A DNA stretch of 9,170 nt, from the IMG/VR virus record IMGVR_UViG_2724679236_000012. One strand, 5' to 3'. Each line of letters opens with the position of its first letter. Positions within the stretch are counted from its first letter, which is position 1. Positions 1 to 3,000 of the stretch are shown here, one piece after another. The position numbers were made by a program. The DNA comes from a virus. Its lineage: Duplodnaviria; Heunggongvirae; Uroviricota; Caudoviricetes.

Positions 1-3000
1 TTTTCGTAATGATGGAGGCATTATTCACCTCTCGCAGCCTTTCGTCTGTCTTCTCTGATTTTGAAATACAGATTTGTCAGATAGGTGAGAAAGCCCAACA
101 CAAGGCTTCCAAGCACCCCAATCGCAGCCCACTGTGATGGACTGACCTGATCCAACCACTGTAAAAACCAGTAGCCAGCACTGCCTGCGGAGGTGCCGTA
201 GGCAATGCCCGTTGTTAACTTGTCCATGGATTTCATAGCCTCACCTCCGCAAATAACGGATGGTGTACACGGTTCGGAACGAAGAGGGAAAGGTATAGAA
301 GTTACATTAGCGTAAGGCTTGAACATCTATTCAAAAAGAAAAACGCCAGCGATTATTCTGGCGTAGCTGAAAGCATCATACAATTATCAAATACGAAAAT
401 TACAAAATCATTAAAACGCATCACGTTACATCATTTCTTTTTCTAAAAAAAAATCTTGATGAATATTGATGGGGAGAAACACCAAAATATCTTCTGAAAA
501 CACTTACAAAATATGACGTGTTTTCATAACCGCATATCTCAGCAACTTTTCCAACAGAATATAAATTGTAGCTTAATAACCTTTCCGCCATCACCATTCG
601 CTCTTCAAGAATTAATTTACTAAATGATAAGCCTTCGTGCTTTAATTTTCTTTTTAACAGACTTTCACTCAGATACAGCCTTGAAGATATATCACAAAGT
701 CTCCATGCTGCAGATATATCCGTGTGAATAATAGCCTTAACTTTACTTCCTAAACTATTAAGACATCCAAATAAAAAACTTTGCACTATTTTCTCTGAAG
801 ATAAGATAGCAAGACATGCAAGTGATATTTGATTTCTAACAACATCCACAGTTCTGCCATCACAATTCAAGCATGCAATCAAGTTCTTTAACAATGAAAA
901 ATCTTCACATTCCACCATCAAGTATGCCGGATAAAACCTTCTTACAGAAAAAGGTGAGAGTGTGTTGCTTTTAAAGAAATCATTAACTGTTTTCTCTTCA
1001 ACATCTACGATCATTACATGATCTATATTTGATAAAAAAATCTTTTAAATTGTAATCAATGAGAACAGCACTTCCTTTTTTAAACAAAATATCTTCTTTA
1101 CCAATTCGGACATCAAACGAGTTCAACACCAAAATGATAGAACATATGTATGGCATATTATCCACCTGATATCATTGGGGTTACACCAGGTAAGTATAGG
1201 TGGAAAATCAATATTCGCCAGTTCAACAATAAGGAAAATCTCATTGCATCACAAGTATAAAATCATGTATTTAACTCACAAAAACAAATTATTAAACCAA
1301 TCTGTTATATTATATATAGCTGCGTGGAATCATAATATTATATATTTTGACTGGCATGTTTACCAAATTTAAATTGCATCTCAATGGTTTGTTCAGCGTA
1401 AACAGAGTTTTTATACAAACTGACACTCTGGGTATCATAGTGTAGTTTTTACGATTGTAAATATCCTGCATGCAGGAACTCATCCTTTTGGATGATATCG
1501 CATACAATTAATTTACCATCAGTCTTAGAGCCAGTTCGTCCGGATAGGGATCGAAGTAATTCTGTGTAAGCAAGTAATCATTAGGATACTCACCCAAATA
1601 ATGCTTCAGCAGAGTCAACGGCGCAAGAAGAGGCAATGTGCCAGAACGATAGTTAAGTATAACCTCGCTCAACTCTTTACGCTGGCGTGTACTTAAGTAG
1701 TTACTAAAATACCCCTGTATATGCATCAGCACATTCGTGTGATTTTTACGTGATGCAGGTTTTCTGAGAATCGCCATCAGCTTATCACGATACACCTCAA
1801 AGTATGATTCAAGGTCCGCCCACTCGTGTATTGCAGCCACAAATGGCCCCATATCTTTATAGCCTGCCTGACTATGCGCCAACAACTGAAGCTTATAACG
1901 ACTATGAAAAGCTAATAACTCTCTTCTTGATAATTTCTCCTTGTAAAGGTGATTGAGCTCATGCAAAGCAAAAACTCTTTCAACAAAATTCTCACGAAGC
2001 ACTGGATCATGTAATCGCCCATCCTCTTCAACCGGTAGCCAGGAAAACTTTTCCATCAAAGTGCTCGTAAATAGTCCCACTCCATCTTTACGACCTCGAT
2101 TACCATTTTCATCATAGACACGCACGCGCTCCATGCCACAGCTGGGAGATTTAGCACAAACCACAAACCCCGATACATCCTTTAATTTGTCCATATAAGA
2201 ACGACTAAACTCTGTCATTCTCTCTGTCACATCCTCATTCTGGTCGTGGCTGAAACACATCCGTATATTTCCTTGCGTCGAGCGCACAAGACGTAGAGCA
2301 GGACGCGGAACTGGCAGCCCTATAGCCATTTCCGGACATACTGGTCTGAATGTTACCCATTCCACTAATTTGTCCATTAAAAAGTCAGCTCTTTTGTGAC
2401 CACCATCAAAACGAACAGCAGAACCGGCCAAACAACCGCTGATTCCAATCACAGGTTTTTTTATCATATTCTCCCCCTTGACTAATTCATTAACACATAA
2501 ACTGTGTAGTGCACGGAATAAATTGCCTTTCTGGCGTCATCACTGACAATTTTTCTGTTATGGACTATTCCTAATATAGTATGAAAGTTCTTTTAGTGAT
2601 CGGTCGTAATCATCTATCTTTCATACTTACTCTCAACTATCAAAAGTACAGGATTTATTATGAAGTTATGGCCTGTGTTGACTGGCATTGCGCTCTCTTT
2701 CACTCTTATAGCATGTAAGGCCCCGACACCACCTAAAGGTGTGCAGCCGATTACAAATTTTGACGCCAACCGCTACCTCGGAAAATGGTATGAAATAGCT
2801 CGCCTCGAGAACCGGTTCGAACGTGGTCTGGAACAGGTCAGCGCTACTTATGGAAAACGGAACGACGGAGGGATTCGTGTACTTAACCGTGGATACGATC
2901 CAACGAAAAATAAATGGAGCGAGAGCGAAGGTAAAGCATACTTTACTGGAGATACTAAAACTGCAGCGTTGAAGGTTTCGTTTTTTGGCCCCTTCTATGG

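Follow-up and report, generated by a model that had tools for sequence, protein, structure and literature searches.

In 2024 Jamontas et al. gave the name RudS to proteins in which a TudS domain is fused to a DUF1722 domain, and characterized RudS as a [4Fe-4S] enzyme that converts tRNA s4U8 to uridine, the binding of the tRNA being mediated by DUF1722 (NAR 52:10543, PMC11417400). RudS acts chiefly on s4U within intact tRNA, activity with 4-thiouracil being only residual (PMC11417400). One of the enzymes, RudS_vir of phage 1H12, was synthesised and expressed in E. coli, where it lowered tRNA s4U; removal of s4U is reported for five other RudS enzymes too, and across variants the decrease was 4.7- to 26-fold. 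RudS_vir was the least tRNA-specific variant, removing less s4U than RudS_ST at a similar protein level, and with it a uracil auxotroph began to grow on 4-thiouracil after a shorter lag than with any other RudS variant; the growth support given by stand-alone TudS was matched by no RudS (PMC11417400). Among the 884 genomes with RudS homologues, 637 encode both ThiI and RudS (PMC11417400).

The window analysed here, 9,170 nucleotides of a tailed virus (IMG/VR record IMGVR_UViG_2724679236_000012), harbors on the minus strand at 1508..2467 an uninterrupted ORF, with an ATG start and its stop within the span, for a protein of 319 aa, exactly where the sequence-only reading had placed it. The fusion proposed in that reading was borne out by a Pfam search: residues 7-149 (2021..2449, minus strand) match the full profile of PF04463 (2-thiouracil desulfurase, formerly DUF523; E = 3.1e-40) and residues 192-309 (1541..1894, minus strand) that of PF08349 (DUF1722; E = 1.9e-40), and the two matches do not overlap. 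With an N-terminal TudS/DUF523 and a C-terminal DUF1722 domain in one polypeptide the protein is RudS, an already known enzyme, and the family assignment is an ordinary one. Identical copies (100%) are found on other IMG/VR contigs. We consider the locus best explained as a whole by a RudS-type s4U eraser that is carried as cargo of a lambdoid prophage alongside a Blc-type lipocalin, and put the probability of this at about 85%.

RudS_vir (H3V29_gp66 of Escherichia phage 1H12, NC_049947) likewise has 319 aa and aligns without gaps, 298 of the 319 residues being identical (93%); none of the 21 substitutions is at a ligand or catalytic position, and the cluster ligands given for RudS_vir in Table 1 of PMC11417400, Cys12, Cys44 and Cys110, have the same numbers in the window protein. 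Two statements of the sequence-only reading, that DUF1722 is of unknown function and that a phage-borne fusion of this kind is undescribed, were thus already out of date, since the tRNA-binding role of the domain and the assay of RudS_vir had both been published (PMC11417400). Comparison with the 1H12 copy gives a dN/dS of 0.11 at a dS of 0.28 for rudS and a dN/dS of 0.06 for blc, which indicates purifying selection, and in the window RudS this selection acts with DUF1722 intact and of full length. The exact allele in the window is expected to be an active desulfidase. Bacterial RudS enzymes, such as RudS_KT (PP_0741) of Pseudomonas putida and RudS_ST (STM1389) of Salmonella, share the TudS-DUF1722 architecture and the catalytic and tRNA-binding residues, and the Enterobacterales orthologues, including those of Enterobacter, Citrobacter and Klebsiella, also have 319 aa and are 70-77% identical to the window protein.

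Two single-domain proteins are each related to one half of RudS. TudS (DUF523Vcz; PDB 6Z92, 6Z93 and 6Z96) has the same fold, the three-Cys cluster site and the CPE and SPSCG motifs, but consists of one domain of about 150-166 aa, acts on free bases and nucleotides and is only about 27% identical to the window protein, which has in addition DUF1722 and longer loops (residues 13-29 and about 116-130). In RudS these loops serve in taking tRNA (PMC11417400). A stand-alone thiouracil/4-thio-UMP desulfidase of the TudS type is ruled out by the two-domain fusion of 319 aa. The other half resembles YbgA (b0707), the stand-alone DUF1722 protein of E. coli, in that the C-terminal 156 residues match NF007549 (E = 1.4e-56); YbgA, however, has about 169 aa and DUF1722 without a catalytic domain, and it had no effect on tRNA s4U (PMC11417400). 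Equivalence with YbgA was rejected, the score of 190.8 bits being below the cut-off of 237 and the match spanning residues 160-315 only. The name under which the window protein stands in RefSeq, 'YbgA family protein', therefore conceals the catalytic domain of RudS.

The sequence-only reading had assigned Fe-S binding to the cysteines in GISGC (Cys12), RPVCPE (Cys44, with Glu46) and CAKSPSCG (Cys104 and Cys110), all of which are present in the protein. For three of the four the assignment stands. In a profile of 48 distant homologues (33-55% identity; E = 3.7e-17) Cys12, Cys44 and Cys110 align with Cys10, Cys43 and Cys104 of TudS, and C44-P-E46 and S107-P-S109-C110 pair with C43-P-E45 and S101-P-S103-C104. 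Cys12 and Cys44 are invariant among the 48, and at least 90% of them have Cys110. The window's own Cys104, with which CAKSPSCG begins, is not conserved in this set and was rejected as a ligand. The alignment of the third Cys to TudS was obtained only after moving to this profile: PDB searches with the single sequence or close homologues aligned TudS at residues 5-66 only and missed that Cys, and a 77-residue fragment around it gave no PDB match.

Glu46, Arg55 and Ser107 are invariant in the 48 homologues and Ser109 is conserved in at least 90%; counted by offset from the Cys ligands they correspond to Glu51, Arg60, Ser111 and Ser113 of RudS_KT. By the same offsets Arg24 and Ser243/Arg244 of RudS_KT are Arg19, also invariant in the 48, and Ser239/Arg240, a conserved pair inside the DUF1722 domain. 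All of these residues are kept in 28 Enterobacterales homologues. An AF2 model built with 28 sequences is of moderate confidence only (pTM 0.70, mean pLDDT 71.5, below 50 at residues 13-29 and 278-319); its sole significant Foldseek match is TudS (6z96/6z92), at E = 6.6e-6 and 27% identity, with a target-based TM of 0.69. The DUF1722 region is helical in the model and found no structural match in the PDB with Foldseek, as was also reported for this domain in the RudS paper (PMC11417400).

Could the phage enzyme nevertheless act mainly like TudS, salvaging free 4-thiouracil, 4-thiouridine or 4-thio-UMP from degraded tRNA and feeding uracil nucleotides to phage or host? The catalytic domain has a genuine TudS fold, the active-site motif being identical, and such a role would be in keeping with both the short lag of RudS_vir on 4-thiouracil and its weaker removal of tRNA s4U relative to RudS_ST when protein levels were comparable (PMC11417400). 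RudS_vir did, however, lower tRNA s4U, and it shared with all RudS enzymes the failure to equal TudS in growth support (PMC11417400). The window protein has moreover retained a full-length DUF1722 under purifying selection, together with Arg19, Ser239 and Arg240, which are implicated in tRNA binding. We regard predominant salvage as unlikely; the modification or salvage of free thiolated bases suggested in the sequence-only reading is the role of stand-alone TudS, the main substrate of RudS being s4U in tRNA (PMC11417400).

For the eraser reading we propose the following mechanism. The TudS domain would hold the [4Fe-4S] cluster on Cys12, Cys44 and Cys110 and bind the sulfur of 4-thiouridine at the free fourth iron, and Glu46, Ser107, Ser109 and Arg55 would catalyze the replacement of sulfur by oxygen. 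The helical DUF1722 would dock the anticodon arm of the tRNA, so that the enzyme would work on the s4U8 (and s4U9) of intact tRNA and not on free thiouracil. The product would be ordinary uridine and the near-UV-sensitive residue, whose crosslinking to C13 leads to uncharged tRNA, accumulation of ppGpp and growth delay, would be gone. E. coli encodes thiI and carries s4U8; thiI lies outside the window. The benefit would be near-UV tolerance of the lysogen or protected translation during UV-triggered induction.

The setting of rudS is that of prophage cargo beside a lipocalin, as had been supposed. The window also encodes RusA, YbcO, a NinB-like protein, a P21-type holin and a serine recombinase (Pfam), and as a whole it matches lambdoid prophages of E. 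coli chromosomes at 99%. Upstream of the cassette and on the rudS strand lies the gene of the antiterminator Q (3340..3717, minus strand; PF06530, E = 2.5e-51; so annotated by RefSeq in an identical region), and downstream the first lysis gene, that of an essD-like class II holin (21..236, minus strand; PF04971, E = 6e-35; essD in the matching genome). Divergent from rudS is the gene of a Blc-like outer-membrane lipocalin lipoprotein of 174 aa with the lipobox LIAC (2660..3184, plus strand; PF08212, E = 7e-44), which falls into the NCBIfam Blc subfamily (316 bits, cut-off 267) and is 60% identical to Blc of K-12. Adjacency of blc and rudS, which the sequence-only reading had asked to be checked, holds in 80/80 viral loci of IMG/VR, and the full order Q(+), Blc(-), RudS(+), AraC(+), holin(+) in 71 of the 80 as well as in all the annotated copies, from E. 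coli or from phages, that were looked at. Phage 1H12 has the same cassette, with Blc on the opposite strand, but its own nin region, whereas the backbone of the window is DLP12-like with ybcK, ybcL and ybcM; many different lambdoid backbones carry the cassette. In lambdoid coliphages rudS and the divergent Blc-type lipocalin gene travel as a conserved module of two genes, usually with an AraC-like gene behind it, in the cargo slot that separates the antiterminator gene Q from those for lysis.

Defence genes are a frequent cargo in such slots of lambdoid prophages. The cassette might be a module of phage-host conflict that alters host tRNA, conferring for example resistance or sensitivity to a tRNA-targeting nuclease, and besides the slot the substrate, host tRNA, and the occurrence on so many backbones would suit this. 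None of the three cassette proteins, RudS, Blc and the AraC-like protein, matches a defence model in PADLOC-DB 2.0, however, and to our knowledge no defence system that reads s4U8 has been reported. The blc/rudS pair is found on the chromosomes of seven other genera, mostly beside a MerR-type regulator, which indicates a stress function. A conflict module is for these reasons very improbable. In a PHROGs screen only families of unknown function were matched; no Rfam family was found in the window and ARAGORN found no tRNA gene in it, so there is no tRNA cluster like those of Stx phages.

With RudS as eraser the question is when it is made. The same slot, on the late strand with Q and a terminator upstream and S/R/Rz downstream, is occupied by stxAB in Stx phages and by nmpC in DLP12; there the cargo is a toxin or a porin, here an eraser of a tRNA modification and a lipocalin. 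For Stx phages the coupling of cargo expression to induction is established (e.g. PMC8065619). Since on the late strand Q and its terminator precede rudS and the holin gene follows it, induction-coupled late transcription is predicted, as for stx; blc, unlike rudS, points against late transcription. Shortly after Q, in the interval that separates the stop codons of Q and blc, the terminator scan gave a hairpin with a T-run (3218..3241, minus strand; 9-bp stem, then TTTTTTTC), which is a candidate for tR', the terminator that Q-modified polymerase reads through. A second hairpin resembling an intrinsic terminator (343..364, minus strand; 7-bp stem with five GC pairs, T-run), between the AraC-like gene and the holin gene, would close the cassette as a separate transcription unit.

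Possibly rudS is also expressed in lysogens from a promoter of its own. The presumed site of such promoters is the 192-bp region between rudS and blc (2468..2659), whose mean column identity among five phage or prophage copies is 96%, while the coding regions differ by up to 8%. It contains, 2 nt upstream of the rudS ATG, the Shine-Dalgarno-like sequence AAGGGGGAGA (2470..2479, minus strand), whose GGAG core lies 4 nt from the start codon. Phage 1H12, E. coli HS, 2013C-4282 and phage IdasGreatGrand keep most of it: seven of the ten positions do not vary, and each copy departs by 1-2 bases and stays purine-rich. A search for sigma-70 promoters of rudS or for pR' gave nothing convincing, only weak matches such as that at 2636..2609 of the minus strand; since the 14 matches are no more than in shuffled sequence (11.1 +/- 3.3), we name no promoter, and it is from the gene order that we infer the timing of rudS expression.

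Divergent blc/rudS pairs are present on chromosomes of Enterobacter, Leclercia, Lelliottia, Huaxiibacter, Buttiauxella, Raoultella and Kluyvera, usually with the MerR-type regulator between the two genes, and the Blc in the window is 74-82% identical to the rudS-linked Blc of Enterobacter, Kluyvera and others. This tight linkage of rudS to a distinct Blc paralogue in phages and seven genera points to a functional or regulatory coupling. Chromosomal rudS genes differ from the phage gene in standing in stress-type operons, one type with a transthyretin-like gene and a MerR regulator resembling MlrA, such as Enterobacter has, a second with SnoaL, SDR, amine-oxidase, DUF1365, CFA-synthase-like and DUF3833 genes; rudS operons with photolyase or LitR have also been described (PMC11417400). 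The phage gene is without such partners, lies inside the late operon and is AT-richer (43.5% GC in the window versus 54% in Citrobacter). In the window neither tblastn nor Pfam revealed a gene for a MerR, MlrA-like or transthyretin-like protein, and next to rudS there is neither a MerR/LitR-type regulator nor a photolyase gene, so that what has been proposed for bacterial RudS as a response to light may not hold here. The blc-rudS intergenic region has no meaningful similarity to its Kluyvera counterpart, and therefore no donor can be named.

A tentative proposal, which we think possible but doubtful, is that blc/rudS is a chromosomal stress module of Enterobacteriaceae which lambdoid coliphages took without its MerR-type switch into a Q-controlled late operon, where induction by UV would trigger the erasure of host s4U8. 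If so, near-UV crosslinking and the stringent response would not choke late protein synthesis, and about one in five E. coli strains would gain RudS activity and a near-UV phenotype via lysogeny. A literature search combining DUF1722 or DUF523 with prophage or moron found no paper on the phage cassette; that the cassette is common and conserved is only a mildly new point, and the context may be useful for research on tRNA modification and prophage cargo.

Downstream of rudS lies the disrupted gene of an AraC-family (YdeO/GadX-like) regulator (421..1165, minus strand; HTH_18/HTH_AraC matches; 31.7% GC). It is split into ORFs of 55 and 197 aa; at a T-run two bases are missing, and close to the 3' end there is one T too many. 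Relatives, including the intact gene of 1H12, encode 243 aa. Several other copies of the cassette lack the gene or have only part of it, and rudS itself is disrupted in some strains, by IS3 in BL21 and by IS1 in MINF_9A. Such decay would be expected if rudS were a passenger without current function in this prophage. The low dN/dS of rudS, its intact catalytic residues and the largely conserved region upstream of it speak against this, as does the finding that 1064 of the 1136 E. coli genomes with a match retain at least 80% of the gene; a mere passenger is the least probable of the explanations considered. E. coli has been said to be without RudS (PMC11417400), also in a 2026 review. Prophage-borne rudS is nevertheless present in those 1136 out of 5426 complete E. 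coli genomes (~20%), so that natural isolates may not resemble K-12 in s4U content or in the growth delay caused by near-UV.

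The rudS gene was confirmed on the minus strand at 1508-2467. It encodes a protein of 319 aa that starts MIKKPVIGISGC, and its purine-rich ribosome-binding site, read from the sequence as AAGGGGGAGA, lies 2 nt upstream of the ATG (the GGAG core 4 nt upstream). In Pfam the protein matched the full profiles of both PF04463 (2-thiouracil desulfurase, formerly DUF523; residues 7-149, E 3.1e-40) and PF08349 (DUF1722; residues 192-309, E 1.9e-40). The sequence-only reading had therefore assigned the family correctly, and the Cys motifs that it quoted were found in the ORF as Cys12, Cys44/Glu46 and Cys104/Cys110.

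These cysteines had been proposed to bind an iron-sulfur cluster. Because searches with a single sequence aligned just the first two of them to TudS, the stand-alone thiouracil desulfidase (PDB 6z92), distant relatives of the N-terminal domain were gathered for a profile (5131 cluster representatives at E up to 0.001), of which 47, with 33-55% identity, were aligned together with the window protein. S10, C12, G15, R19, C44, E46, G50, P54, R55, S107, P108 and G131 are invariant in this alignment, with S109 and C110 conserved to 90% or more. The profile covers TudS residues 3-124 (E 3.7e-17) and pairs TudS C10, C43-P-E45 and S101-P-S103-C104 with C12, C44-P-E46 and S107-P-S109-C110 of the window protein. 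As ligands, C12, C44 and C110 hold up, being conserved and aligned with TudS; C104 of the CAKSPSCG motif is not conserved and drops out. An AlphaFold2 model from 28 sequences (pLDDT 71.5, pTM 0.70) shows an N-terminal domain of beta/alpha type and a C-terminal one made up of helices only. TudS entries were its sole significant PDB matches in Foldseek (E 6.6e-6, target TM 0.69, 27% identity), the DUF1722 half matching no PDB entry. With the cysteines aligned and the fold matching TudS only, the searches led neither to an unrelated family nor to misaligned ligands.

In 2024 Jamontas et al. (NAR; PMC11417400) gave the TudS-DUF1722 fusion the name RudS and reported that RudS enzymes strip sulfur off 4-thiouridine (s4U) in tRNA. 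Upon overexpression in E. coli tRNA s4U dropped 4.7- to 26-fold, depending on the variant, and the UVA-induced growth delay was shorter when RudS was expressed; purified RudS_KT from Pseudomonas putida bound tRNA and desulfurized it in vitro. Mutations at the three cluster cysteines or at the catalytic Glu, Ser and Arg residues abolished activity, and modelling with mutational support identified DUF1722 as the tRNA-binding part (PMC11417400). Among the six enzymes assayed was RudS_vir (gp66 of Escherichia phage 1H12; ligands Cys12, Cys44 and Cys110) (PMC11417400), to which the window RudS is identical, without gaps, in 298 of 319 positions (93%). The window gene is thus a member of an already known enzyme family, of which a near-identical phage orthologue has already been assayed, and the sequence-only reading's claim of novelty has to be given up. 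Our additions are modest: how common rudS is in E. coli, its conserved linkage to blc, the apparent loss of a MerR switch and a misleading RefSeq name.

We consider it very probable (roughly 0.85) that the window RudS works as a RudS-type eraser of s4U in tRNA. The alternative to be taken most seriously is salvage of free thiolated uracil compounds in the manner of TudS, for which it speaks that RudS_vir had the highest residual 4-thiouracil activity of the enzymes assayed and a comparatively weak activity on tRNA; yet RudS_vir did lower tRNA s4U (PMC11417400), and the domain for tRNA binding is both intact and conserved. The s4U eraser might benefit phage or lysogen by making near-UV better tolerated, or by protecting translation when UV triggers induction. 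A role of the cassette in defence or counter-defence found no support when its three proteins were compared with the PADLOC models.

E. coli was stated to lack RudS (PMC11417400), likewise in a 2026 review, which holds for laboratory strains only: rudS was found in 1136 of 5426 complete E. coli genomes, nearly always on the chromosome; the match spans 80% of the gene or more in 1064 of these, and in 1045 genomes 80% or more of the segment made up of rudS and blc is collinear. In BL21, the expression host of that study (locus L011, NZ_CP053601.1, 5001-5864), the blc of the Qin prophage is intact and rudS is a stump of 49 codons (147 nt), truncated by IS3. Relatives of rudS are encoded on 154 IMG/VR contigs. 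The suggested co-occurrence with the neighbouring lipocalin was borne out: in the best 80 of these 154 contigs, each with 98% identity or more, Blc is always adjacent and divergent, and 71 of the 80 show the complete order of five genes; the cassette was also found in twelve GenBank phage records. A 3.2-kb contig of a 'Candidatus Nanosynbacter' Saccharibacteria MAG (JARKOR010000151.1, L119) carries rudS, the AraC-like gene and the holin gene with 94, 98 and 89% identity to the cassette, and is most likely a coliphage fragment put in the wrong bin.

The window belongs to a lambdoid prophage, transcribed on the minus strand in the order ybcK, ybcL, ybcM, ybcN, ninE, ybcO, rusA, ylcG, Q (3340-3717), hairpin, blc (2660-3184, on the plus strand, opposite to rudS), rudS, AraC-family gene (YdeO/GadX-like, 421-1165, downstream of rudS), hairpin and holin (21-236). 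On the late-operon strand two intrinsic-terminator-like hairpins bracket the cassette, one directly after Q (3241..3218, a candidate tR', on the other strand just beyond the blc stop) and one directly ahead of the holin gene (364..343). Phages 1H12 and IdasGreatGrand share the order Q, blc, rudS, AraC-like gene, holin with a Qin-like prophage of E. coli HS and with strain 2013C-4282, where the lambdoid backbone is a different one. The late promoter of lambdoid phages, downstream of Q, drives the lysis genes; since rudS lies on the late strand between Q and the holin gene, it should, judging from gene order, be co-transcribed with the late genes on induction, as stx is. Late transcription through the cassette would be antisense to blc. 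A promoter scan gave nothing above background. The 192-bp blc-rudS intergenic region is unusually conserved, at 96% among copies that differ in their genes by as much as 8%, which is compatible with promoters belonging to the cassette itself.

The AraC-like gene beside rudS (31.7% GC) is clearly decaying. In the window it is split into ORFs of 55 and 197 aa, intact copies having 243 aa; compared with these, two bases are missing at a T-run (T7+A instead of T8+CA), and a second T-run near the 3' end has an extra T. At the other 55 loci scored the first run was T8 in 45 and T6, T7 or T9 in 10, where it would shift the frame; the run is a hotspot of frameshifts or of sequencing errors. The decay of its neighbour might mark rudS as a passenger gene, a view contradicted by purifying selection on rudS (dN/dS between the window and 1H12 0.108; blc 0.062).

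Beyond E. coli, chromosomal RudS of Citrobacter comes closest (76-77%), ahead of those of Serratia, Klebsiella, Enterobacter and Salmonella (about 70-75%). In Citrobacter rudS is the last gene of a long operon (SnoaL-like, SDR, amine oxidase, DUF1365, CFA-synthase-like, DUF2878, chalcone-isomerase-like, DUF3833). A Blc paralogue, 74-82% identical to the window Blc, lies divergently upstream of rudS in 13 of 80 species-representative loci. Such chromosomal blc/rudS loci (L099-L126, about 1950-3900) occur in seven genera, namely in eight Enterobacter and in Leclercia, Lelliottia, Huaxiibacter, Buttiauxella, Raoultella and Kluyvera, usually with a MlrA-like MerR regulator and/or a transthyretin-like gene in between; in Kluyvera cryocrescens the two genes are directly divergent, as in the phage. 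The chromosomal Blc of K-12 (b4149) is only 60% identical to the window Blc, and the prophage lipocalin is a distinct paralogue. Since its identity to rudS-linked chromosomal Blc is so much higher, the phage cassette looks like a captured chromosomal blc/rudS pair that has lost its MerR-type regulator, none being present in the window. The comparisons point to no particular donor: the intergenic DNA does not align with that of Kluyvera, and the phage genes are AT-richer (43.5% versus 54% GC in Citrobacter). In Salmonella enterica of the serovar Derby type (L007/L008, 3200-7800) a rudS of 74% identity adjoins ttcA, without blc, with an integrase fragment on one side and a phage DUF1367 gene on the other; this locus is a degraded prophage at the Rac integration site of E. 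coli and suggests that rudS became associated with phages a second time, independently.

Most copies bear the RefSeq name 'YbgA family protein' (WP_000592546.1 and relatives), which hides the TudS catalytic domain; the window RudS scores 190.8 with the YbgA equivalog model, below the cut-off of 237. In one E. coli protein of 403 aa (P0002), a single sequence from one 19-kb contig, the RudS domains (99% identity across 92% of the query) are joined to a GGDEF domain (PF00990), possibly a fusion made by rearrangement or an artefact of gene calling. The window also carries DLP12-type cargo on the minus strand at 5422-8771, ybcK (a serine recombinase of 508 aa), ybcL (PEBP/Raf-kinase-inhibitor-like) and ybcM (AraC family), with a low GC content of 31-39%. 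A prophage at icd matches the window at 99%, and the best E. coli matches end at base 9089; the last 81 bases (9090-9170) diverge from these genomes, in or beside the emrE region of the matching prophage.
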